Positions 5,674 to 41,673 are shown, numbered from the stretch's first letter. The stretch is DNA of 64,000 nucleotides from Arenicellales bacterium (GCA_041550555.1 JBFEOO010000002.1:1865-65864); one strand, 5' to 3'. Program-made: numbers and translations. Notes: generated by a model not told the origin, from the letters alone.

Positions 5674-6975
<1,302 letters not shown>

Positions 6976-8770: not shown

Positions 8771-9379
8771 TCATTGCGGCTGCTGGTTCTTCTCGGCGAG
8801 CGAGTCGATCAGTGCCTGCATACCCTGGCTTTGCACGACGCGCGAGTAGCTGGCCCGATAGTTCGTCACCAGGCTCACGTTGTCCACCGTGATGTCGTAG
8901 ACCTTCCAATGGTCGTCGTTCAGCGCCAGCCGGTAATGCATAGGTACCGCGGGCCCTGAGCCCGCGACGATCTCCGTTCTGACCAGGGCGCGATCGCCCT
9001 TGTCGTTGATCTGTACCGCCTTGTAGCGTATGGGCTGGCCCGTGTACTCGAACAACGCCGTCGCATAGGTGCGCACCAGCAGCGTGCGGAATTCGTCGAC
9101 GAAGCGCACCTGCTGGGCTTCACTGGCGTCGGACCAGTAGCGACCCAATACGAGACGGGACATGCGCTCGAAGTCGAAGTGCGGCAGCACCAGCTCATCG
9201 ACCAGTGCGTACAGGCGCATGTGGTCCTGCTCGAGCGCTGCCCGCTCAGCGGTGAAGCGCTGCAAGACCTTATCGGTGGTGTCGCGAACGAGCGCGTCCG
9301 GTGCCAAACCTGCGCCGGCCGTAGCGCTGCCGCCCAACGCGGTCACCAACATCGCCGTCAACGCCAACAATCGCTTCAT
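8771..9379 (-). CDS. mlaC: Periplasmic phospholipid-binding protein MlaC (Ttg2D family)
   Basis: The protein has a signal peptide (MKRLLALTAMLVTALGGSATA) and the Ttg2D-like core FDFERMSRLVLGRYW. Its ATG overlaps the mlaD stop as ATGA. Confidence 0.9.
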   Translation of the reverse strand: MKRLLALTAMLVTALGGSATAGAGLAPDALVRDTTDKVLQRFTAERAALEQDHMRLYALVDELVLPHFDFERMSRLVLGRYWSDASEAQQVRFVDEFRTLLVRTYATALFEYTGQPIRYKAVQINDKGDRALVRTEIVAGSGPAVPMHYRLALNDDHWKVYDITVDNVSLVTNYRASYSRVVQSQGMQALIDSLAEKNQQPQ

Positions 9380-9843
9380 TGCCCGCCACCCTCGCTTTGG
9401 CTGAATATGAGCTGCCCGATCAACTGCTCGAGAACGACCGCCGACTGCGTCAGGTCGAACTCGTCTCCGTCGTGGAGGAACTCGTCACTGCCGCCAGGCT
9501 CGAGTCCGACGTACTGAGCGCCGAGCAGCCCCGCCGTGAGAATCGACGCCGCCGTGTCGCGCGGAATATTGTCGAACTCCTTCTCGATCCTCATCGCCAC
9601 GACGGCGTTGAAATCGTCGGGGTCGACGTGAATGCCCGTCACGCGTCCGATGCGCACGCCCGCCATGGTGACGGGGGCCTTCACGTTGAGGCCGCCGACA
9701 TTAACGAACCGGCCGTAGACGGTGTAGCCTCCCTGAATCTCGGTGGTGTTGAGATTGCCGATCCTCAGTGCCAGCATCCCCAAGGCCAGTATGCCCGCGA
9801 GAACGAACAGGCCGACAGCCATTTCGATCGCCTTGCTCTGCAT
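9376..9843 (-). CDS. mlaD: MCE-domain protein MlaD
   Basis: The 155-aa ORF has an N-terminal TM helix followed by an MCE domain (VTMAGVRIGRVTGI). Confidence 0.9.
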   Translation of the reverse strand: MQSKAIEMAVGLFVLAGILALGMLALRIGNLNTTEIQGGYTVYGRFVNVGGLNVKAPVTMAGVRIGRVTGIHVDPDDFNAVVAMRIEKEFDNIPRDTAASILTAGLLGAQYVGLEPGGSDEFLHDGDEFDLTQSAVVLEQLIGQLIFSQSEGGGQ

Positions 9844-9847
9844 TGGT

Positions 9848-10627
9848 TCAGACTTCTCCGAACATTAGCGCCGTCAAAAGATAATCCAGGCCGAGCACCG
9901 CCAGCGATGCCGTCACCACGGTGCGGGTGGTCGCACGACTGACACCCTCGGCCGTCGGTGTCGCGTCGTAGCCTTCGAACACGGCGATCCAGGTCACGGC
10001 GAAACCGAACACCACGCTCTTTATAACACCGTTCAGTATGTCATCGTAGACGTCCACACCCTCCTGCATGGACGACCAGTACACGCCGGCGTCGACGCCG
10101 AGCTGCACGACACCGACGAAGTGCCCCCCGAATACCCCTATCACCGTAAACATTGCAGCCAGCAGCGGCAGGGCGATGATACCGGCGATGAATCGCGGCG
10201 CAACGACGCGCGCCACGGGATCGACCGCCATCATCTCCATGGCGGCGAGCTGCTCTGTCGCCTTCATCAGACCGATCTCGGCGGTCAGCGCAGAGCCTGC
10301 CCGCCCCGCGAAGAGCAACGCCGAGAGCACCGGCCCCAGCTCCCGGGTCAGCGTCAGCGCGACCACCAGGCCGAGCTGCGACTCGGCGCCGAAATCGACC
10401 AGCGTGTAGTAGCCCTGCAGGCCCAGCACCATTCCGACGAACAGTCCCGCCACGACGATGATCAGCAACGTCAACACGCCCACCGCGTAGACCTGCTGAA
10501 CCACCAACCCAAACCGCCGCAGGGCAAGGCTCGCGCTCGTCAGCGTGGCATAGAGGAACAGCCCGGCGCGACCTAGACCCGCAACTGCAGCGATACACCA
10601 AGCGCCGAGCGCTTGAACGCCCGTCAC
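9848..10627 (-). CDS. mlaE: ABC transporter permease MlaE
   Basis: The 259-aa polytopic membrane protein contains LTRELGPVLSALLFAGRAGSALTAEIG, the MlaE signature. Its GTG start overlaps the mlaF stop as GTGA. Confidence 0.9.
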   Translation of the reverse strand: MTGVQALGAWCIAAVAGLGRAGLFLYATLTSASLALRRFGLVVQQVYAVGVLTLLIIVVAGLFVGMVLGLQGYYTLVDFGAESQLGLVVALTLTRELGPVLSALLFAGRAGSALTAEIGLMKATEQLAAMEMMAVDPVARVVAPRFIAGIIALPLLAAMFTVIGVFGGHFVGVVQLGVDAGVYWSSMQEGVDVYDDILNGVIKSVVFGFAVTWIAVFEGYDATPTAEGVSRATTRTVVTASLAVLGLDYLLTALMFGEV

Positions 10628-11454
10628 GATGGGGGGCCCTGCAGCAGATCCTCGAAGAACGGCTTCGCGGGGTAGTGGAACGGTACCGGTCCGTCCGGCA
10701 GCCCGTCCATGAACTGACGCACCTGCGGCTCAGTGCTCGCCAGCAGCTCCGCGGGGCTGCCTTGAGCGATAACGCGGCCGCCCCCGAGCAGATAGACGTG
10801 CTCGGCGATGCTGCACCCCTCGGCAACATCGTGGGTGACGACGATCGACGTCAGTCCGAGCGCGTCGTTGAGCTCACGCACGAGCTTTGCGATGACACCC
10901 ATCGAGATCGGATCGAGCCCGGTGAACGGCTCGTCGTACATGACCAAGGCAGGATCCAGCGCGATCGCCCGCGCCAGCGCCACTCGGCGAGCCATCCCCC
11001 CCGAGAGCTGTGCCGGCATCAGATTACTGGCGCCGCGCAGCCCCACGAGCTCGAGCTTCATGAGCACCAGATGGCGGATCAGCGCATCGGGCATGTCCGT
11101 GTTTTCCCGAATCGGGAAAGCGACATTGTCGAAGACGCTCAGATCCGTCAGCAGCGCGCTAGTCTGGAACATCATGCCCATGCGCCGGCGCAGCGCGTAG
11201 AGCGCGCCTTGGCGCAGCTTGCCCACGACGGCGCCGTCGAATGACACCTCGCCGCCATCGGGCTTAAGCCGCCCCCCGATGAGGTTGAGCAGGGTGGACT
11301 TGCCGCACCCGCTGGGGCCCATCACCGCGGTGACCTTGCCGCGGGGAATGACCAGATCGAGACCCTCGTAGACCATGCGTGACCTGAACGAGAAGCGAAC
11401 GTTGCTCACCTCGATCAGATTGTCGGCGGAGGCCGGACGGCTGGGTGCGTTCAA
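10624..11454 (-). CDS. mlaF: ABC transporter ATP-binding protein MlaF
   Basis: Walker A (GPSGCGKST), the LSGGMARRVALARA signature and Walker B (MYDEPFTGLD) are present. The track ORF starts at 11559, but homology begins near LIEVSNVRF. A TTG at 11454 is proposed, and the start remains uncertain. Confidence 0.85.
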   Translation of the reverse strand: MNAPSRPASADNLIEVSNVRFSFRSRMVYEGLDLVIPRGKVTAVMGPSGCGKSTLLNLIGGRLKPDGGEVSFDGAVVGKLRQGALYALRRRMGMMFQTSALLTDLSVFDNVAFPIRENTDMPDALIRHLVLMKLELVGLRGASNLMPAQLSGGMARRVALARAIALDPALVMYDEPFTGLDPISMGVIAKLVRELNDALGLTSIVVTHDVAEGCSIAEHVYLLGGGRVIAQGSPAELLASTEPQVRQFMDGLPDGPVPFHYPAKPFFEDLLQGPPS

Positions 11455-11686
11455 GGAACTAGCTGTGCGATCGCGAGGACGCGCGATTCTAGCAGAGTTG
11501 CACGGCTGCGCCAGTGCCGCCTTCGCGCCGAGGGACGGCCGGCCACGACGGCACTGCACGACCGAGCGGCGCGCACCGCTACCGGCGATGTCACATCACC
11601 GGCACCGGCTTGCAGCGCAAGGGCTGCGTCACACTCCGCGCTCGGCCACTCCGCATCCGCCGCGCGTCGGCGCGGCCTTGGCTTCG

Positions 11687-12409
11687 CTAGGAGACGCCGA
11701 GCAGCTCCGCCAGCGTTCTGGCCTGCGTCGCCTGGCGATAGGCCGTGGAGAGGTCGTCGAAGTACAGCCCGCCACCGCGTCGTGCATCCATCCAGCGGAC
11801 CATGGTTTCGACAGCGCCGCGCAGCTGTCGCAGGTCACCCCCTCGCGTCAGCGCAACGAGAAACCGACCCCAGGGGTACGGTCTCGCGTCGCGCTCGGGT
11901 CGCCAGACCACGCTTACGCGGGCATCCGCCAGCCAGCGCGCGACAGCGGCTGACAACGGCCTGCCGTCAGCGTCCACGGCGAGGGGTGCCAGATCAGCGA
12001 GCGCCTCCACGAGCCGCGCGAGCCACGTCGGCTCGGCGTTGCGACGTGTCCATCCGCAGTCCGTGGGAAGTGGTCTGACGACAAAAGCGCACGTGAGGTG
12101 CGCGGCGGGCGCCAACGTCGCTAGGAAGCGCGCCAGCTCCTGGCGCCGATCGGATCGGCCCAGTCGGGGCCGGCAAAGAACCGCCGGCAGCTCGACAACG
12201 AAGCTGAACCCGGGATCACAGTCCTCGACCCAGCCGGCGACATCCTCGGCGCTGGCGCGCGTCCACGTCGAGGCCGGCACCACCACGCTGCGGTGCTCGT
12301 TGCTGTAGTAGCAGAGACGCCACTCGGCGGGCATCTCCGGGGGGAAAACGTCTGCCGCCCACTGGGCATGATCCCACCCCCAGCAGCCGATCAAGAGTGG
12401 CTCGACCAT
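11687..12409 (-). CDS. Divergent DUF72 (UPF0759)-like protein
   Basis: The 240-aa ORF has high GC3. Its N-terminus IGCWGWDHAQW..FPPEMPAEWRLCYYS and C-terminus GLYFDD...ARTLAELL parallel the DUF72 pattern (IGTSGWSY..W..FYP....L.YYA ... VYFNND...A..L.ELL). The match comes from recall only. Confidence 0.5.
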   Translation of the reverse strand: MVEPLLIGCWGWDHAQWAADVFPPEMPAEWRLCYYSNEHRSVVVPASTWTRASAEDVAGWVEDCDPGFSFVVELPAVLCRPRLGRSDRRQELARFLATLAPAAHLTCAFVVRPLPTDCGWTRRNAEPTWLARLVEALADLAPLAVDADGRPLSAAVARWLADARVSVVWRPERDARPYPWGRFLVALTRGGDLRQLRGAVETMVRWMDARRGGGLYFDDLSTAYRQATQARTLAELLGVS

Positions 12410-12723
12410 CGCCGTACCCGCTAAACCGTGCGTCCGCTAGCCACCACCGTCTACCCTACCGCCATCTGCTCGGTGCTTACCGCCAGAGAGGGTACCACCC
12501 TGATCAGTCTCGCGCTGCAGGCCGGCGGACCGTACCGCGGGGTGCTCATCGGGACGCTCTGCCGGTGCAGCACCAGCGCGTCGGCAACAGCCCGCACCTC
12601 GGCCCGTCCGCGCGGTTCCATCTGTTATACTGCGGCGCACCGTGCATCGTCGGGACAGCCGGTGTCGGTCTGCAGATTGCAGCACACCCGATAGCGAACA
12701 GCTTGGGCAAGCGCGACGAGATC

Positions 12724-13725
12724 ATGAGCTTGAGTGCGGCGAACCAATCAGAGATTTCCGAAGACGGCTTCGTGCGTGAGGGCCGCAGCGTGCTCGCCAT
12801 GGAGGCCGACGCGGTGACGCGCCTCGGCGACCGGCTCGGGACTGCATTCGCCGACGCGTGCCGGCTGATTCTGGCCTGTGAAGGCCGGGTCGTGGTGGTG
12901 GGCATGGGTAAGTCCGGCCACGTGGGCGGCAAGATCGCCTCCACGCTGGCCAGCACCGGCACCCCAGCGTTTTTCGTGCATCCCGGCGAGGCCAGCCACG
13001 GCGACCTCGGCATGATCACGCCGACTGACCTCGTTCTGGCCATTTCCAACTCCGGCGAGACCCCTGAGATTCTTACGATCCTGCCGGTCATCAAGCGCCT
13101 CGGGGTGCGACTGCTGGCGCTGACGGGAGCGCTGGACTCCACGTTGGCTCAGCAGGCCGATGTCGCCCTCGATGTCGGCGTCGAGCAGGAGGCCTGCCCC
13201 CTCAATCTCGCCCCCACCGCCAGCACCACCGTCACCATGGCCATGGGTGATGCCCTCGCCGTGGCGCTGCTCCGCTCGCGCGGCTTCACCACGGAGGATT
13301 TTGCCCGCTCCCATCCGGGAGGGGTGCTTGGGCGCCGCCTGCTGCTCTACGTCAGCGACGTCATGCACACCGGCGACCAGATTCCGCTGGTGAGCGAGAG
13401 TGCGACACTGCCCGATGCGCTGCTGGAGATGTCGAGCAAGGGTCTCGGGATGACCGGCGTCGTCGATGCCGACATGCGTCTAGTGGGTATATTCACCGAC
13501 GGCGATCTGCGCCGCGCCCTCGGCAATTCCATCGACGTGTACGCGAGCCGCATCGACCGGCTGATGACCCGCGGACCGGTGACGATTTCTCCGGACACGC
13601 TTGCCGCCGCGGTCGTGCAGATGATGCGCACCCGATCGATCAACGGCGTTTTCGTAACCGACACGCAGCGGCGCGTGCTCGGCGCGCTCAACACCCACGA
13701 TCTGCTGCGCGCCGGGGTCATGTAG
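12724..13725 (+). CDS. kdsD: Arabinose-5-phosphate isomerase KdsD (SIS + tandem CBS)
   Basis: The protein contains GRVVVVGMGKSGHVGGKIASTLASTGTPAFFVHPGEASHGDLGMI and C-terminal CBS repeats. The start is at MSLSAANQ (12724). The track ORF from 12397 is an upstream extension. Confidence 0.92.
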   Translation: MSLSAANQSEISEDGFVREGRSVLAMEADAVTRLGDRLGTAFADACRLILACEGRVVVVGMGKSGHVGGKIASTLASTGTPAFFVHPGEASHGDLGMITPTDLVLAISNSGETPEILTILPVIKRLGVRLLALTGALDSTLAQQADVALDVGVEQEACPLNLAPTASTTVTMAMGDALAVALLRSRGFTTEDFARSHPGGVLGRRLLLYVSDVMHTGDQIPLVSESATLPDALLEMSSKGLGMTGVVDADMRLVGIFTDGDLRRALGNSIDVYASRIDRLMTRGPVTISPDTLAAAVVQMMRTRSINGVFVTDTQRRVLGALNTHDLLRAGVM

Positions 13726-34925: not shown

Positions 34926-36323
34926 TCACGCGCTGTCTCCGCCTCCCCCGCCCGTGAAGCGCCAGCGCGTGCCTTGCGCCCCGTCCTCGAGGGCGACCCC
35001 GCGCTCCAGCAGCTCGTCGCGAATGCGGTCGGCCGTGGCGAAGTCTTTCGCACTGCGCGCCGCGCCGCGGGCCGCGATCAGACGCTCGATCTCATCGATC
35101 TCGATCTGCGCGTCGCCGCGCCGCTCGAACCACTCCTCGGGCCTCTGCCCCAACAGACCGAGCACCTCGCCGGCCGCGAGCAGCTGGGCCTTGTAGCGGG
35201 CCCGCTCCGCGGAGTCGGCGGCGGCGTTGGCGGCGCGCGTCAGCTCGTGCAGCTCAGCGAACGCCTGCGGCGTGTTGAGGTCATCCTCGAGCGCGGCCAT
35301 GACGGCCGGGGGCGGCGCCGCATCCGGCGCCGGCGCCACGTCACCGAGATCCCGCAGCGTGCCGTAGAGCCGGTCGAGGCTGCGCTGCGCGCGGGGCAGC
35401 GTCTGCGCCGACCAGTCGAGCGGCTTGCGGTAATGAGCGCCCAACAGGGCCGCGCGGACCGTCTCGCCCGGTGCCTGCGCCAACAGGTCCCGCACCAGCA
35501 GAACGTTGCCGAGAGACTTGGACATCTTCTCCTGATCGACGTTGACGAAACCATTGTGCACCCAGTGTCGGCAAAACAGTTTGCCGCCGTGCGCGCAAGT
35601 GCTCTGCGCGATTTCGTTCTCGTGATGGGGAAAAACCAGATCCTGCCCGCCGCCGTGGATATCGATGGTCTGGCCCAGGTGCGCCTCGATCATGCACGAG
35701 CACTCGAGGTGCCAGCCCGGGCGCCCGCGCCCCCAGGGGCTGTCCCAACCGGGGAGATCGTCGGTGGACGGCTTCCAGAGCACGAAGTCGGCCGGGTCGC
35801 GCTTGTAGGGGGCCACCTCCACGCGGGCCCCGGCGATCATGTCCTCTCGCGCGCGGCCCGACAGCCGGCCGTAAGCGGCAAACGACGGCACGTGGAACAG
35901 CACGTGGCTTTCGACCTCGTAGGCGTGACCTTGCGCGATGAGGCGCTCGACCATGGCGATCATGCCGTCGATGTGGTCGGTCGCCCGCGGCTCGAGCGTA
36001 GGCGGCAGGACTGCGAGCGCCTCCATGTCGTGGTGGTAGATCGCCGTGTAGCGGTCACTGACGGCGGTAATCGGCACCCCGGCCTCGGCGGCGGCCGCAT
36101 TGATCTTGTCGTCGACGTCCGTGATGTTGCGCGCGTAGACGACGCCGTAGTGACGCCGCAACACCCGGAACAGAACGTCGAACACCACCGCCGGACGCGC
36201 ATTGCCGATATGCGGGTGGCTGTACACGGTCGGCCCGCACACGTACATCGTCACCCGCCCGGGGTCCGCCGGCACCAGCGGCTCCTTGCGACGCGTGAGC
36301 GTGTTGTAGAGCTGTATGGCCAT
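34926..36323 (-). CDS. cysS: Cysteine--tRNA ligase
   Basis: The 465-aa ORF has [19 protein letters not shown] (HIGH) and KMSKSLGN motifs. Confidence 0.95.
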
Positions 36324-36442
36324 GGCGGCGGATTATAATGGCGGCACACGACGTTTCACGAGCCGGTCCGCGGCCGGGCGCGGCGGCGTGACACCGCCAT
36401 GCGAACAGGGCACGTCCGCCCGCCGGCGCGCAGCGCACGTTT

Positions 36443-37030
36443 GTGACGGTCCCATTCATGGATAACTCGCACGTGCCCGCGGTGCTCGCGGACGGCACAA
36501 CACCGCTCTCTGTCGCGGCACTCCTCTGTATGCTCGACGAGCTCGGTGTGGCCCACAGCACCGTCAGCCATCCCCCCCTGTTCACCGTGGAGCAGTCGAA
36601 GGCGCTGCGCGGTGAGCTGCAAGGCGCCCACACCAAGAACCTCTTCCTGCGTAACAAGAAGGGCACCATGTGGCTGGTCACCTGCCGCGAGGACTGCCAA
36701 ATCGACCTCAAACGCCTGGGTGCCGACCTCGGCGCCGGCCGCTTGTCCTTTTGCAGCCCGGAGCGGCTGATGAAGTTCCTCGGCGTCACGCCGGGCGCCG
36801 TCTCTCCCTTCGCGGTCGTCAACGACAGGACCGGCTCGGTGCAGGTCGTGCTCGATCGCCGACTGCTGCAGCAGGACCCACTCAACCTGCACCCGCTCGA
36901 CAACACCCGGACCACCGCCGTGTCCGGCGCCGACCTGCTCAGGCTTCTGGACGCGGTAGAGCATACGCCGCTCGTGCTCGACCTCGACGCGCAGGTCGAC
37001 GGCGGAACGGCCGCCGCGTCGGCCCGCTGA
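36443..37030 (+). CDS. YbaK/ProX-family aminoacyl-tRNA deacylase (prolyl-tRNA synthetase associated domain)
   Basis: The protein contains HTKNLFLRNKKG and GVTPGAVSPFAVVND motifs typical of ProX/YbaK trans-editing proteins. The start is either GTG 36443 or ATG 36458. Confidence 0.75.
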   Translation: MTVPFMDNSHVPAVLADGTTPLSVAALLCMLDELGVAHSTVSHPPLFTVEQSKALRGELQGAHTKNLFLRNKKGTMWLVTCREDCQIDLKRLGADLGAGRLSFCSPERLMKFLGVTPGAVSPFAVVNDRTGSVQVVLDRRLLQQDPLNLHPLDNTRTTAVSGADLLRLLDAVEHTPLVLDLDAQVDGGTAAASAR

Positions 37031-37092
37031 CCACAGGCCGTCGCCGACCACGGCCCCCGACGCGGAACCAGGCTGCCTTGCAATGCCTCGTC

Positions 37093-37121
37093 TTGCGTTT
37101 TGGCAGGCAGACGGCTAGATT
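37093..37121 (+). promoter_or_regulatory. Candidate sigma-70 promoter for the ileS leader
   Basis: TTGCGT (37093-37098), a 17-nt spacer and TAGATT (37116-37121) lie about 10-20 nt before the first T-box Stem I nucleotides. The hexamers are weak. Confidence 0.35.
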
Positions 37122-37138
37122 TCGGCGAAATCGAGCAA

Positions 37139-37447
37139 GGCGTTGATAGGGACGAGTAGCCGCGTCGATACAGCGACAGCGAGCGGGGGACGGTGGAAGC
37201 CCCGCGCTGTAGCGCGGCGAAAATCACCCTGGAGCCGCTGACCGAACCGCGCCACCGGCGCTGCGCCGGGGTTCGCAGTAGGATCAGCCGGTCGGCCACC
37301 GTTATCGGGCCAGGGTGTCGAGCGGGCCGAACCGTCCGTCGTCACCCGCAGAGGCCACCGACTCGTGAGAGGGTGGCGAAACCGGGTGGTACCGCGAACG
37401 TCTCGCCCCGGGGATTCCAGCAACGGACCCCGGGGCGTTTTGCTTTT
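37139..37447 (+). promoter_or_regulatory. T-box riboswitch leader, isoleucine (AUC) specifier
   Basis: - Stem I has a GA/K-turn region (TTGATAGGG paired to CCCTGGAG) and the helix GCCGCG 37159-64 / CGCGGC 37213-18.
- An AG-bulge-like ACAGCGAG lies at 37176-83, and the distal loop is GACGGTGGAAG.
- The specifier loop is GAAA-ATC-A, with ATC at 37223-25.
- The F-box CCGTTA is at 37299-304, and Stem III is GCCACC/GGTGGC at 37354-77.
- The T-box sequence GGGTGGTACCGCG is at 37384-96.
- The antiterminator carries the 7-nt bulge TGGTACC.
- An overlapping terminator follows. Confidence 0.88.
37404..37447 (+). terminator. Intrinsic terminator of the T-box leader
   Basis: A perfect 10-bp stem CGCCCCGGGG (37404-13) / CCCCGGGGCG (37428-37) with a 14-nt loop is followed by TTTTGCTTTT. 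Its 5' arm is shared with the antiterminator 3' strand (CGC 37404-06, CCCGG 37407-11). Confidence 0.85.
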
Positions 37448-37460
37448 GAGGCACGAGCCG

Positions 37461-40400
37461 ATGAGCTTCAAGGAAGTGTCCGGCCGCTACGACGGCCCGC
37501 AACTCGAACAGGAAATTCTCGAACTGTGGCGCGAGCACGATGTCTTCGAGGCGACGCTCCGGCACAGCGAAGGACGGCCGCTTTTTACCTTCAGTGAGGG
37601 TCCGCCGACCGCGAACGGACGGCCGGGAATTCATCACGTGCTGGCGCGCACCTTCAAGGACATCTACCCGCGTTACAAGACCATGCGCGGCTATCACGTC
37701 CCCCGTAAGGCGGGCTGGGACACGCACGGCCTGCCCGTCGAGCACGAGATCGAGAAAGAGCTGGGCATCTTCGACAAGTCCCGTATCGAAGCGGAGGTCG
37801 GCATCGCAGAGTTCACACGGCGCTGCCGCGAGTCCGTGCTTCGCTACATCGGCGACTGGGAGAAGATGACCGAGCGCATGGGTTTCTGGGTCAACATGAA
37901 GCAGGCCTACTACACGCTCGACAACGATTACATCGAGTCGGTGTGGTACCTGCTCAAGACGATCTGGGACAAGGGGCTCATCTACCAGGGCTACAAGGTG
38001 GTGCCCTACGATCCCCGCATCGGCACCACGCTCTCCTCGCACGAGGTGGCACTCGGCTACAAGGAGGTGGATGACCCCTCGGTCTACGTCCGCTTTCGGC
38101 TCATCGAGGAACCCGACACCTCGTTGCTGGTCTGGACGACGACGCCCTGGACGCTGCCGTCGAACCTGGCGCTCGCCGTGCACCCCGACGTCGACTACGC
38201 ATTCGTCGAGACGGCGGGAGAGGTGCTGGTAATGGCCGCGGAGCGGGTGGACGCCGTGGTGGGCGACACCGAGCGCCCCGTGCGGACCCAGCGCACGGTG
38301 AAAGGCAGCATGCTCGTGGGTCAGCGCTACCAGCGCCTGTTCGACTATCTGCCCGTCGAAGGCGACGTCTGCCGGGTGCTGCCTGCGGAGTTCGTCAGCA
38401 CCGCGGATGGCACGGGCATCGTGCACATCGCGCCCGCCTACGGCGAGGACGATCTCGAGCTCGGACAGCGTTACGACTTGCCGGTGCTGCACGGTGTCGG
38501 TCTCGACGGTCACTTCCTGCCAGAGGTCACACCGGTCGCGGGAAAGTTCTTCAAGGATGCCGACCCCACGCTGATCGGGCTGCTCGATGAGCGCGGGCTT
38601 CTGTTCCGCGCCGAGACCCACCGGCACAACTATCCCTTCGGGTGGCGCACCGGCGATCCCTTGATCTACTACGCCAAGAACGCCTGGTACATCCGCACCA
38701 CTGCTTTTCGCGACCGCATGGTCGAGTTGAACAAGACCATCAACTGGGTTCCGGAGTCCATCCGCGAGGGTCGTTTCGGCAATTGGCTCGAGCACAACGT
38801 CGACTGGGCGCTGTCCCGCGAACGTTTTTGGGGCACACCGTTGCCGCTGTGGACGGACGGCGCGGGCAGCTACGTGTGCATCGGTTCGGTCGCCGAACTC
38901 GAGCAGCTGGCGGGCCGATCCCTCGAGGGGCTCGACCTGCACCGGCCCGCTGTCGACGAGGTGACCTTTCACAAGGACGGCAAAGAGTACCGCCGCGTCG
39001 CCGAGGTGATCGACTGCTGGTTCGACTCGGGAGCGATGTCCTACGCCCAGTGGCACTACCCTTTCGAGAACGAGGGCAGTTTCCGCAGCCATTTTCCGGC
39101 CACGTACATCTGCGAGGCCATCGACCAGACGCGGGGGTGGTTCTACACCCTACACGCGATCGCCACCATCGTCTCGGACAGCGTGGCATACGAGAACTGC
39201 GTGTGCCTGAGCCACATCGTGGATAAGCACGGCAAGAAGATGTCGAAGTCGCTCGGCAACATCGTCAATCCCTACGATGTGTTCGACACCATCGGCGCCG
39301 ATCCGCTGCGCTGGTATTTTCTGGCCCGCGTAGCCCCCGAGGGCCAGAAGCGCATCTCCGTCGACATCGTCGCCGACGTCGCCAGCTCGTTCCTGAACAC
39401 GCTTTGGAATGCCTATGCCTTCTTCGTGCTCTACGCGCGCCTCGATCGGGTCGATCTCAGCCACGCCGTTCCGCTTGCCCATCGACCGGAGATCGATCGC
39501 TGGGCGTTGGCACTGCTCGAGCAGACCGTGACGACAGCGACCGAGGCGCTCGACCGTTACGACGCCAAGACGGCCGGCGAAGCCATCGAGTCGTTCGTCG
39601 ACCAGCTGAGCAACTGGTACATCCGCCGTAACCGGCGACGCTTCTGGAAGGCGGAGGCAGGCGCCGACAAGCAGGCCGCCTATCTGACGCTCTACGAATG
39701 TCTCGACGTCATCGAGCGCCTGATCGCGCCGTTCATGCCGTTTCTGGCCGAGGCGATGTACCAGAACCTGGGCCGCGCCGCAGCCGCCAGCGTGCACATG
39801 ACGTCATGGCCTGCACCGGTGGCCGAGCGGCGCAATCCGGCCCTGGTGGAGGAGATCGACATCGTGCAGCGGGTGGTAGGCCTCGGCCGCGCTGCCCGAG
39901 AACAGTCGCGGGTGCGCGTGCGTCAGCCGCTCGCCCGACTCCTGCTCCGCGTGCCCGACGATGCCTCAGCCCGGGCGGTCGAACGCCATCGGGGGCAAGT
40001 GCTCGAGGAGCTCAACGTCAAGGCGCTGGAATTCATCGCTCGCGACGACGAGTTCGTCAGCTACCGCATCAAGCCCAACTTGCCGCGGCTCGGTAAACGC
40101 CTGGGAAAACGTATCCCGGCGATTCGCAGCGCACTCGAGCAGGCCGCCGGCAGTACCATCGCAGCGGCCGTAGCGCTCGGCGAGGGGTTTGCCCTCGAGA
40201 TCGACGGCGAGTCGCTGGTGTTCGAGCCGGAGGACGTGCTCGTCGAGACCACGTCGGCGCCGGGGTTCGCCTGTGCCGAGAGCGCCGGCTATCTGGCGGC
40301 CCTCGATACGACCGTGACGCCTGCGCTGCGGCGCGAAGGGTTGGCGCGGGAGCTCGTGCGCACGGTGCAGGACGCCCGCAAGCAGGCCGGCCTGACGGTG

Positions 40401-40592
40401 TCCGATCGCATCAGGCTGCGCGTCGACGGTAGCGAAGCGGTGCAGCAGGCGCTGCGCGAGTACCGCCCTTTGATCATGGGGGAGACGTTGGCGTCGGAGT
40501 GGGTCGACGGCGAGTTCGAGCCGCACTTCGAAGTCGACCATCGACTCGACGACGAGCACTGGTCCATCGCACTGGCGCGAACGACCCCCTGA
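37461..40592 (+). CDS. ileS: Isoleucine--tRNA ligase, type 2 (about 1043 aa)
   Basis: The protein starts MSFKEVSGRYDGPQLEQEIL and has PPTANGRPGIHHV (HIGH) and KMSKSLGN. Its length and the C-terminus lacking the type-1 zinc-finger Cys cluster indicate type 2. GAGG lies 9 nt upstream of ATG 37461. The track ORF from 37365 reads through the terminator. Confidence 0.93.
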   Translation: MSFKEVSGRYDGPQLEQEILELWREHDVFEATLRHSEGRPLFTFSEGPPTANGRPGIHHVLARTFKDIYPRYKTMRGYHVPRKAGWDTHGLPVEHEIEKELGIFDKSRIEAEVGIAEFTRRCRESVLRYIGDWEKMTERMGFWVNMKQAYYTLDNDYIESVWYLLKTIWDKGLIYQGYKVVPYDPRIGTTLSSHEVALGYKEVDDPSVYVRFRLIEEPDTSLLVWTTTPWTLPSNLALAVHPDVDYAFVETAGEVLVMAAERVDAVVGDTERPVRTQRTVKGSMLVGQRYQRLFDYLPVEGDVCRVLPAEFVSTADGTGIVHIAPAYGEDDLELGQRYDLPVLHGVGLDGHFLPEVTPVAGKFFKDADPTLIGLLDERGLLFRAETHRHNYPFGWRTGDPLIYYAKNAWYIRTTAFRDRMVELNKTINWVPESIREGRFGNWLEHNVDWALSRERFWGTPLPLWTDGAGSYVCIGSVAELEQLAGRSLEGLDLHRPAVDEVTFHKDGKEYRRVAEVIDCWFDSGAMSYAQWHYPFENEGSFRSHFPATYICEAIDQTRGWFYTLHAIATIVSDSVAYENCVCLSHIVDKHGKKMSKSLGNIVNPYDVFDTIGADPLRWYFLARVAPEGQKRISVDIVADVASSFLNTLWNAYAFFVLYARLDRVDLSHAVPLAHRPEIDRWALALLEQTVTTATEALDRYDAKTAGEAIESFVDQLSNWYIRRNRRRFWKAEAGADKQAAYLTLYECLDVIERLIAPFMPFLAEAMYQNLGRAAAASVHMTSWPAPVAERRNPALVEEIDIVQRVVGLGRAAREQSRVRVRQPLARLLLRVPDDASARAVERHRGQVLEELNVKALEFIARDDEFVSYRIKPNLPRLGKRLGKRIPAIRSALEQAAGSTIAAAVALGEGFALEIDGESLVFEPEDVLVETTSAPGFACAESAGYLAALDTTVTPALRREGLARELVRTVQDARKQAGLTVSDRIRLRVDGSEAVQQALREYRPLIMGETLASEWVDGEFEPHFEVDHRLDDEHWSIALARTTP

Positions 40593-40685
40593 TCGGGACG
40601 ATCCGCCGCAGCATCCTCGCACCACCCGCCGCCGCGGCGGTCCCACTGCTGGACTCCCACGGGCCCCGCTTGGCTTGCGGCGGTG

Positions 40686-40718
40686 CCTTCGCTCGCGCCT
40701 GGCGGCCGCGAGCGAAGG
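40686..40718. repeat. Perfect 12-bp inverted repeat (hairpin) downstream of ileS
   Basis: CCTTCGCTCGCG (40686-97) and CGCGAGCGAAGG (40707-18) are separated by a 9-nt loop. No U-tract follows. It lies 94 nt after the ileS stop. Confidence 0.6.
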
Positions 40719-40795
40719 CCAACACCCCAGGTTGCACAGGGTTGGACAGGGATGGTTGAAAAAAGAGGATGTATAATTATTTTCTAAAAAATATA

Positions 40796-40823
40796 TTGAC
40801 ATTATCTGAATATTCTGTAGAGT
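40796..40823 (+). promoter_or_regulatory. Candidate sigma-70 promoter inside the AT-rich island upstream of the fasciclin gene
   Basis: TTGACA (40796-801), a 16-nt spacer and TAGAGT (40818-23) lie about 70 nt upstream of ATG 40895. A perfect TATAAT at 40772-77 lacks a good -35. Confidence 0.35.
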
Positions 40824-40894
40824 ACAGGATGTGGGTAGTAGACAATTCTGGAAATTTTAACGACTGTCTAAAAAAATCTCGAGGAATCAACGCC

Positions 40895-41404
40895 ATGCGC
40901 AAACTCATCGCTCTCGCACTCGTCGTAGCCAGCACCGCCGGCGGCCTCTCCGCGCTGGCCAAGGTCGGTTCGGCCCCGGATACCCCTGTCGACGTCGCCA
41001 GCGCCGTCCGCGGCTCCGGCGAGCTGGGTCTCTTTGCCGGCGTGCTGCGCGACACGGACGTGAATGCAACGCTCCGCAGCGACAGCGGCTGGACGCTGTT
41101 CGTCCCCTCGGACAGCGCGCTGCGCAACGAAGGCGCCGCCTTCCTGCTCGAAGAGGTTCTGCGCGCGCCGGCGAATGCCGGTCGACTGCTCGACCTGGCG
41201 AAGTCGCATGTCGTGAAGGGAACGCTGAGTGCCCGCGAGCTCGAGGATCGTGTCGACGTCCCCACCTTGGCTGGTGCGCGGCTGTCGATCGAGCGGGTCG
41301 GTGAAGGCCTGCGGGTGGGTGGTCACGCCATGGTCGTCGACCGCGTCGAAACCGCCAACGGTACGGTATACGTTGTCGACCGCCTGCTCTGGCCGCTCGG
41401 TTGA
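40895..41404 (+). CDS. Fasciclin (FAS1) domain protein, secreted
   Basis: A signal peptide (MRKLIALALVVASTAGGLSALA) is followed by FAS1 motifs (WTLFVPSDSAL, NGTVYVVDRLL). GAGGAA lies upstream of the ATG. The track ORF start at 40769 lies in AT-rich non-coding sequence. Confidence 0.85.
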   Translation: MRKLIALALVVASTAGGLSALAKVGSAPDTPVDVASAVRGSGELGLFAGVLRDTDVNATLRSDSGWTLFVPSDSALRNEGAAFLLEEVLRAPANAGRLLDLAKSHVVKGTLSARELEDRVDVPTLAGARLSIERVGEGLRVGGHAMVVDRVETANGTVYVVDRLLWPLG

Positions 41405-41545
41405 CCACGCCGCCATGCCGATAGCCTTGCAGCTCCAGCTCATGCGGCAAGGCTCGGGATAACCCCTGCGACGGGTGTGGTGCGACAGCGGCACCCCACT
41501 CGGTCAGGAATGTAGGAGCTTTCGGCCGGCGTCGGCGGGATCGAA

Positions 41546-41587
41546 AGCGACGGCGCCTGTGGCAGCAGCACAGGCGTCGCTTTTCTT
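41546..41587 (+). terminator. Candidate intrinsic terminator after the fasciclin gene
   Basis: The stem AGCGAC(GGC)GCCTGTG / CACAGGCGTCGCT has 13 bp with a 3-nt bulge and a 7-nt loop. It is followed by TTTTCTT. Confidence 0.5.
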
Positions 41588-41673
41588 GATCAGTTTACTC
41601 AGGTATTATCGCTGGCGGGCTTACGTCCGCTCAGCCTCTCCAGCCTCGAGCCCAGCCCGGGACATCCGCCAAG

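Follow-up and report, generated by a model that had tools for sequence, protein, structure and literature searches.

A predicted isoleucine-specific T-box leader upstream of a type-2 isoleucyl-tRNA synthetase gene in environmental Gammaproteobacteria

The stretch of DNA analysed here, 64,000 nucleotides from an Arenicellales bacterium (GCA_041550555.1, JBFEOO010000002.1:1865-65864; hereafter the window), carries a gene for a type-2 isoleucyl-tRNA synthetase (IleRS2, gene ileS2) preceded by what reads as a complete, isoleucine-specific T-box leader. We consider it probable that this is a long-resident chromosomal ileS2, imported in the distant past, placed under a transcription-attenuating T-box and most likely serving as the housekeeping enzyme. 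Positions are counted from the first nucleotide of the window, and the features located in it between 36458 and 41590 lie on the plus strand; the loci of relatives are numbered with the prefix L.

The ileS2 gene and its leader

The gene (37461-40592) encodes a protein of 1043 residues, identified from its open reading frame (ORF) and by comparison with Pfam, NCBIfam and Protein Data Bank (PDB) entries. The NCBIfam ileS model scores 933 bits on this protein, and Pfam recognises tRNA-synt_1, Anticodon_1 and DUF5915, the last of these (PF19302) forming the C-terminal domain at residues 847-1040 (nt 39999-40580). The motif GIHH occupies residues 56-59 (nt 37626-37637), and an intact KMSKS motif is found at residues 593-597 (nt 39237-39251). 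The IleRS zinc-finger family gave no match in the Pfam scan of the product, and the last 200 residues contain a single cysteine. The approximate length, the two motifs and the lack of a zinc finger had been described in an earlier reading of the DNA (the sequence-only reading), which had also proposed the type-2 form. That assignment is sound, judged from the DUF5915 tail and from the PDB comparison, in which the protein lies much nearer to IleRS2 (8c8w, P. megaterium, 907 bits; 1ile, T. thermophilus, 859 bits) than to the type-1 enzymes, IleRS1 (8c9f, 376 bits; 1ffy, 337 bits). Its identity to the IleRS of E. coli is 29%.

Upstream of the gene lies the leader, which stretches from Stem I through the U-run of a terminator (37134-37447) and belongs to Rfam family RF00230. 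In an E-value scan of 36950-37520 the full model (1-219) aligns with 37134-37413 at 85.2 bits (E 4e-19), and each of the family's hallmarks that we sought can be read: a specifier loop followed by a purine, an AG bulge, a distal loop, a UGGN bulge and an overlapping terminator. Stem I (37137-37237; covariance model R1, 107.8 bits) includes the K-turn region, the specifier loop, the AG bulge (AGCGA) and the distal loop (GGUGGAA). The specifier codon, AUC for isoleucine, is at 37223-37225 in the context GAAA-AUC-A-CCC, with the conserved purine at A37226, and an F-box-like CCGUUA is also readable in the leader.

The T-box sequence and antiterminator occupy 37382-37413, where GGUGGUACCGCG is invariant in the gammaproteobacterial leaders. 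Likewise invariant in that clade is AACCGGGUGGUACCGCG, the conserved T-box sequence with its UGGN bulge. The 7-nt bulge UGGUACC corresponds to 37387-37393, with UGGU at 37387-37390, and the antiterminator fold that contains it has a calculated energy of -12.3 kcal/mol. An intrinsic terminator follows at 37404-37447, in which CGCCCCGGGG (37404-37413) pairs with CCCCGGGGCG (37428-37437) ahead of the U-run UUUUGCUUUU (37438-37447). The terminator fold (37404-37437) reaches -27.9 kcal/mol (z = -3.05), a stability equalled by one of 200 shuffled sequences. Since CGCCCCGG is common to the 5' arm of the terminator and the 3' arm of the antiterminator, the two folds overlap and are mutually exclusive. 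The Shine-Dalgarno sequence, GAGG at 37448-37451, lies downstream of the terminator and 9 nt before the ATG. In the minimum free energy fold of the terminator region, GUCUC (37400-37404) pairs with the Shine-Dalgarno-containing GAGGC (37448-37452), a pairing that is not present in the centroid structure and that hints at an added translational effect.

A putative sigma-70-type promoter (37093-37121) precedes Stem I, with TTGCGT at 37093-37098 separated by a 17-nt spacer from TAGATT at 37116-37121. It is too weak to be found by a consensus promoter scan, and its proposed role comes from conservation, a CTTGY...TAnnTT pattern being found with equal spacing upstream of Stem I in other gammaproteobacterial loci. 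No tRNA genes were found in the 64-kb window. The sequence-only reading had credited the gene with a T-box leader of its own, and the full-model RF00230 match and readable hallmarks agree with it; the layout is that of a transcription-attenuating T-box, whose default state would be off.

How would such a leader act? From the established mechanism of the T-box family, transcription would begin at the conserved promoter near 37093-37121 and give a leader of ~330 nt, in which Stem I would offer the AUC specifier to the anticodon of tRNA-Ile. If that tRNA is uncharged, its 3' ACCA would pair with the UGGU of the bulge, stabilising the weak antiterminator (~-12 kcal/mol) and allowing read-through into ileS, whereas with charged tRNA-Ile the overlapping terminator (~-28 kcal/mol plus the U-run) would form and transcription would stop. 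Switching by tRNA charging in this way would raise IleRS synthesis when the charging of tRNA-Ile with isoleucine falls.

Conservation of the leader among relatives

The strongest sign that the leader has been maintained is covariation in Stem I. Across 16 gammaproteobacterial sequences, 95.8% of the alignment cells at paired positions are paired, and compensatory changes are seen in 18 of the 21 base pairs; none of 500 shuffled controls matches this, and controls in which the pairing was slid along the alignment pair in at most 53%. All 16 aligned leaders keep the AUC specifier within the pattern GAAnAUCA(C/U)CC. The base of the terminator helix and the U-run are found in all but L043, the terminator of which lay outside the alignment; they are present in 13 of the 14 leaders aligned over this region and also in L082 and L083. 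The helix base itself, CGCCCCGG paired with CCGGGGCG, is nearly invariant, and the upper part of the terminator carries lineage-specific insertions, so that the hairpin can reach ~100 nt (L043 ~9585-9672, L065 ~9905-9982, L002 and L009).

A covariance model of the gammaproteobacterial Stem I finds a match upstream of ileS2 in 17 gammaproteobacterial loci, the window included, and in some 33 loci from other groups; it gives no match in L003, L012, L014, L084 or L085. The exact core GGTGGTACCGCG precedes ileS2 by 70-140 nt in most gammaproteobacterial and most Chloroflexota loci, and the Chloroflexota ileS2 leaders are themselves T-boxes that end in a hairpin and U-run.

Individual loci depart from this arrangement. 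L003 and L012 have no T-box upstream of ileS2 and are nested inside the T-box-bearing sub-clade, which implies independent losses of the leader. In L003, from a metagenome-assembled genome (MAG) of the Acidiferrobacteraceae, an SAH riboswitch (RF01057, 48.4 bits) is found at 5732-5814, ~1.4 kb downstream of ileS2. In L016, an Arenicellales MAG, Stem I (9058-9158) is ~850 nt upstream of ileS2, which starts at 10001, and an ORF of ~235 residues lies between them; an operon of two genes may be under T-box control there.

Phylogeny and origin

A scan limited to one genome per species yielded 595 relatives. The 18 closest, with 64-74% identity, all come from MAGs with a gammaproteobacterial label (Woeseiaceae, Acidiferrobacteraceae, Arenicellales and 'Chromatiales'), and the next tier, at ~50% identity, is mostly Chloroflexota. 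A protein search added closer relatives at 82-83% identity (L082 and L083) and many more environmental members. A contig of 106.5 kb encodes an identical protein, which tells against the window being a join of two contigs. The sequence-only reading had called for an IleRS phylogeny; in two neighbour-joining trees, 23 gammaproteobacterial IleRS2 sequences form one clade with 100% bootstrap support, placed among Chloroflexota branches. Within the clade, the GC content of the locus ranges from 43% to 68%. The IleRS2 of another gammaproteobacterium, Oceanococcus sp. (L068), shares only 47% identity with the window protein and branches with Rhodothermales; no T-box was detected for its ileS2, and this enzyme represents a separate acquisition of the type-2 form.

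The window gene had been proposed to be laterally acquired, and here two time scales must be separated. An ultimate lateral origin is supported by the tree and by the nearest outsiders, at ~50% identity and mostly Chloroflexota. Recent acquisition is contradicted by native composition and by synteny in relatives. At third codon positions the GC content (GC3) of ileS is 0.855, inside the 0.77-0.92 range of the surrounding genes, and none of the 21 genes compared deviates less in codon usage; this check, also suggested by the sequence-only reading, reveals no foreign signature. L082 and L083 share with the window the order znu, nitrile hydratase, cysS, tRNA_edit, T-box-ileS2, sufE, GGDEF-EAL, AIRS and TauE, and all three have the same promoter-like CTTGCGTTTT-N-TAGATT and the same T-box. 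The sequence-only reading had itself named what would tell against lateral acquisition, namely the same T-box and ileS2 at this locus in close relatives, with vertical phylogeny and no type-1 gene; the syntenic loci of L082 and L083 present most of that picture. Synteny does not extend further, no shared order being seen with the 18 gammaproteobacterial loci of the species scan except for a nearby cysS in L016; the Woeseiaceae-type loci are syntenic with one another in a neighbourhood other than that of the window.

These comparisons point to a chromosomal, vertically inherited ileS2 of host composition, and to an ancient xenologous displacement in which an old, Chloroflexota-like import was domesticated. 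Its history would have begun with transfer from a Chloroflexota-like donor to the ancestor of an environmental gammaproteobacterial clade now represented by Woeseiaceae, Arenicellales, Acidiferrobacteraceae and 'Chromatiales' MAGs. The T-box would have entered with the gene, and vertical inheritance and the adoption of host composition would have followed.

A sister lineage with ileS2 in the native slot

A sister gammaproteobacterial lineage (L014, L084 and L085; 100% bootstrap) bears on the role of the enzyme. Here the order is rpsT-murJ-ribF-ileS2-lspA, with no T-box and with only 38-55 nt between ribF and ileS2; the stretches concerned are 9029-13652 in L014, 7001-11638 in L084 and 7001-11632 in L085. 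In L084 and L085 the setting extends to rplU-rpmA-obg-rpsT-murJ-ribF-X-lspA, and the core rpsT-ribF-ileS-lspA is as in E. coli. The LspA of this lineage is 44% identical to that of E. coli, compared with 32-38% to Chloroflexota LspA, and its RibF is 42% identical to E. coli RibF; its IleRS, on the other hand, has only 29-30% identity to the E. coli enzyme. Type 2 has thus replaced type 1 in the native slot, with only ileS exchanged, and an in-place replacement of this kind implies a housekeeping enzyme in the sister lineage. In the long-read MAG L014 the ileS2 gene (9998-13652) is split over two frames and runs into lspA as one ORF, probably because of a sequencing frameshift, given that the genes of L084 and L085 are intact and separate. 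In many Chloroflexota loci, too, lspA directly follows ileS2 (L021, L022, L028, L031, L032, L035, L036, L037 and L040), so the link between ileS and lspA also exists outside the Proteobacteria.

The T-box-bearing loci are arranged differently. The sequence-only reading had set the window gene outside the ribF-ileS-lspA operon, correctly: neither ribF nor lspA was found in the window or in the T-box loci, and a search for RibF homologues returned only the ribF-ileS2-lspA lineage and none of the T-box lineages.

Weighing the alternatives

Several findings weigh against the reading of an ancient, T-box-controlled housekeeping import. The window leader falls short of the curated RF00230 gathering score of 93 bits, for which reason an Rfam scan of the whole window at the gathering threshold gave no matches; the orthologous leader of L002, at 99.4 bits, exceeds it. 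The Stem I model ranks one Clostridia and one Actinomycetota leader above any from Chloroflexota, so the leader alone provides no pointer to that phylum. The T-box is missing from L003, L012 and the whole ribF-lspA lineage, and is therefore dispensable. The deep nodes of the trees are weak (31-63% bootstrap) and the trees are neighbour-joining only, which leaves a Chloroflexota donor tentative. Co-transfer of the leader with ileS2 is likewise only the economical reading, and the view of this genome is that given by 64 kb.

Is the window gene, then, the only IleRS of its genome, or does it stand beside a housekeeping ileS1? As a second copy, its T-box would form an inducible resistance circuit, in which an IleRS1 inhibitor or isoleucine starvation generates uncharged tRNA-Ile and the T-box turns on the drug-insensitive GIHH enzyme. 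T-box logic fits such induction, the GXHH motif is tied to hyper-resistance, and Pseudoalteromonas sp. SANK 73390, also a gammaproteobacterium, has second-copy IleRS2 genes on a plasmid; an ileS1 could also lie beyond the 64 kb in view. The gene has nevertheless been kept at conserved loci over family- to order-level divergence, and the sister lineage holds ileS2 in the ileS1 slot itself. The Chloroflexota and Actinomycetota ileS2 loci retrieved are likewise preceded by T-boxes, so that a T-box is by itself no mark of a second copy, and the window contains no second ORF of at least 900 residues capable of encoding an aminoacyl-tRNA synthetase. We regard a second copy as unlikely, while giving it some weight. 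Its most explicit form, in which a natural pseudomonic-acid-like compound blocks a drug-sensitive ileS1 product encoded elsewhere, uncharged tRNA-Ile accumulates, the T-box flips and the poorly drug-binding GIHH enzyme is induced, is in our view marginally less probable still. It appears reasonably likely that the window gene is the sole IleRS copy, and it is most likely the housekeeping enzyme, type 1 having been displaced.

The T-box could also be a decaying relic of the transfer, with expression now constitutive, as the sub-threshold Rfam score and the loss of the leader in several lineages might suggest. Stem I is, however, maintained by compensatory changes, and the specifier, T-box core and terminator base are invariant across deep divergence; we therefore think a relic very improbable.

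The sequence-only reading had proposed a cassette bounded by a 3' hairpin and an AT-rich island, and both of these elements are real and unusual. A recent mobile cassette is nonetheless highly improbable. The composition of ileS is native, and the locus is syntenic in the relatives of 82-83% identity, which lack the AT-rich island. No flanking repeats, integrase, transposase or other mobility genes were found around ileS, and the closest plasmid copy has at most 46% identity to the window IleRS2. The promoter-like site within the island faces the fasciclin gene. Thus none of the marks of a genomic island, whether atypical composition, repeats or mobility genes, or absence from close relatives, is seen for ileS2.

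Finally, a binning artefact, in which a true Chloroflexota contig has received a gammaproteobacterial label, is scarcely credible even though all members of the clade are MAGs, for the clade is found on contigs of 0.2-5 Mb, L084 and L085 carry the gene in an E. coli-order rpsT-ribF-ileS-lspA core with E. coli-like LspA and RibF, and identity to any Chloroflexota sequence is ~50% at best.

Genes and structures flanking ileS2

The placement of ileS2 between a ProX-like gene and a fasciclin gene, as originally described, is confirmed. Upstream is a tRNA_edit gene (36458-37030; PF04073, E 7e-30) of the YbaK/ProX family, encoding an aminoacyl-tRNA editing domain. It is paired with a divergent cysS in the window (34926-37030), in L082 (6221-8281) and in L083 (6229-8289). 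In the latter two loci a minus-strand GSDH gene, not present in the window, lies between this pair and the T-box.

Beyond the gene, 93 nt past the ileS stop codon, is a perfect GC-rich hairpin. It had been given as 12 bp at 40686-40718; the perfect pairing stands, but extends over 13 bp at 40685-40719 (40685-40697 with 40707-40719) around a 9-nt loop. Its calculated energy is -31.9 kcal/mol (z = -4.2), matched by none of 200 shuffled sequences. A canonical terminator is ruled out, as there is no U-run on either strand, and so is a repeated REP-like element, as matches elsewhere in the window are at chance expectation. Relatives have a different hairpin, with a U-run, in this position. The window hairpin is probably a 3'-end structure of ileS, perhaps a stabiliser or an atypical terminator, although its part in termination is uncertain.

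The AT-rich stretch that had been noted after the hairpin is equally real: the GC content falls to a minimum of 0.26 within 40703-40928, compared with 0.67 overall, and no other such island occurs in the 64-kb window. We interpret it (40745-40894) as the putative promoter and 5' untranslated region of the fasciclin gene, outside the ileS unit. TTGACA-16-TAGAGT at 40796-40823 agrees with the promoter consensus at 10 of 12 positions, the scanned region contains three promoter-like sites where 0.3 would be expected by chance, and a palindrome, TAGACA...TGTCTA, is found at 40839-40870. No Rfam match identifies the island as a known RNA. The fasciclin-domain gene (40895-41404; PF02469) has a host-like GC3 of 0.805 and is followed at ~41551-41590 by a hairpin and U-run terminator (-21.3 kcal/mol), the whole unit spanning 40895-41590. 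Neither this gene nor the AT-rich island is present in L082 and L083, where the gap between ileS and sufE is 184 nt, compared with 1081 nt in the window. Their absence assigns the island to a later, window-specific insertion of the fasciclin gene; no target-site duplications or shared intergenic sequence marking its borders were found.

Mupirocin and the GIHH signature

The G/AXHH form of the first class I signature motif is found only in IleRS2, and the enzymes that carry it bind mupirocin with a Ki up to 1000-fold higher, reaching the millimolar range (Brkic et al. 2023, PMC10485003). The GIHH of the window protein has this form, and is common to every member of the gammaproteobacterial clade whose sequence covers the site, as well as to most Chloroflexota relatives. 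From the published biochemistry of other IleRS2 enzymes, very weak binding of mupirocin is therefore predicted for the window enzyme. Like the G/AXHH enzymes of Deinococcus radiodurans and Streptomyces griseus (PMC10485003), it has GIHH in place of HXGH, type-2 architecture and an intact KMSKS motif; it differs in that its host clade would be expected to carry IleRS1, and it is known here from sequence alone.

Identity with the acquired-resistance enzymes MupA and MupB is ruled out, the NCBIfam exception models for these proteins scoring 797.3 and 782.9 bits, respectively, compared with a cut-off of 1900 bits. MupA and MupB of Staphylococcus plasmids and the plasmid IleRS2 of Pseudoalteromonas sp. 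SANK 73390 are likewise type-2 enzymes that align with the window protein over their full length. Identity to these and to producer or plasmid self-resistance IleRS2 is, however, no higher than 39%, and the window gene is chromosomal, of native composition and apparently inherited vertically.

Relation to known T-boxes and significance

T-boxes are usually regarded as belonging to Gram-positive bacteria and a handful of other phyla. Surveys record them from Firmicutes, Actinobacteria, Chloroflexi and Deinococcus-Thermus; the only proteobacterial examples listed precede leuA in Geobacter and Pelobacter (PMC2494555, PMC3766115 and the TBDB preprint). The literature searched, coverage of which was incomplete, describes no T-box from Gammaproteobacteria. 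The window leader resembles the transcriptional ileS T-boxes of Firmicutes and Chloroflexota (RF00230) in its Stem I with AUC, AG bulge and distal loop, its F-box-like CCGUUA, its UGGUACC bulge, and the overlap of its antiterminator with a terminator that leads into a U-run. It differs from them in its host, a gammaproteobacterium, and in being very GC-rich and below the Rfam gathering score. The ileS T-boxes of actinobacteria such as Mycobacterium and Nocardia are also isoleucine-specific and also precede a type-2 ileS. These, however, are described as translational; their mode of action is to sequester the Shine-Dalgarno sequence, and their Stem I is shortened, in contrast to the full-length Stem I, the terminator with U-run and the downstream Shine-Dalgarno sequence of the window leader. 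Compared with ribF-ileS(type 1)-lspA in E. coli, the sister lineage (L014, L084 and L085) keeps the gene order but has a type-2 enzyme in the slot, and the window gene lies outside the operon with its own putative promoter and T-box.

The window thus places two known elements, the ileS T-box and the GXHH IleRS2, in a new host clade. A conserved isoleucine T-box across a widespread environmental gammaproteobacterial clade that includes the Woeseiaceae extends the known host range of T-boxes and makes their function accessible to testing in Proteobacteria. If the prediction from GIHH is true, bacteria of this abundant clade would be naturally insensitive to mupirocin-type IleRS inhibitors, and if the gene should be an induced second copy, it would represent a riboswitch-based inducible resistance circuit in Gammaproteobacteria. 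As a long-resident import, it would be a clear example of a foreign type taking the place of an essential synthetase, with the displacement occurring in two forms: a foreign gene placed inside the native ribF-lspA operon in one lineage, and a self-regulated unit in the other.

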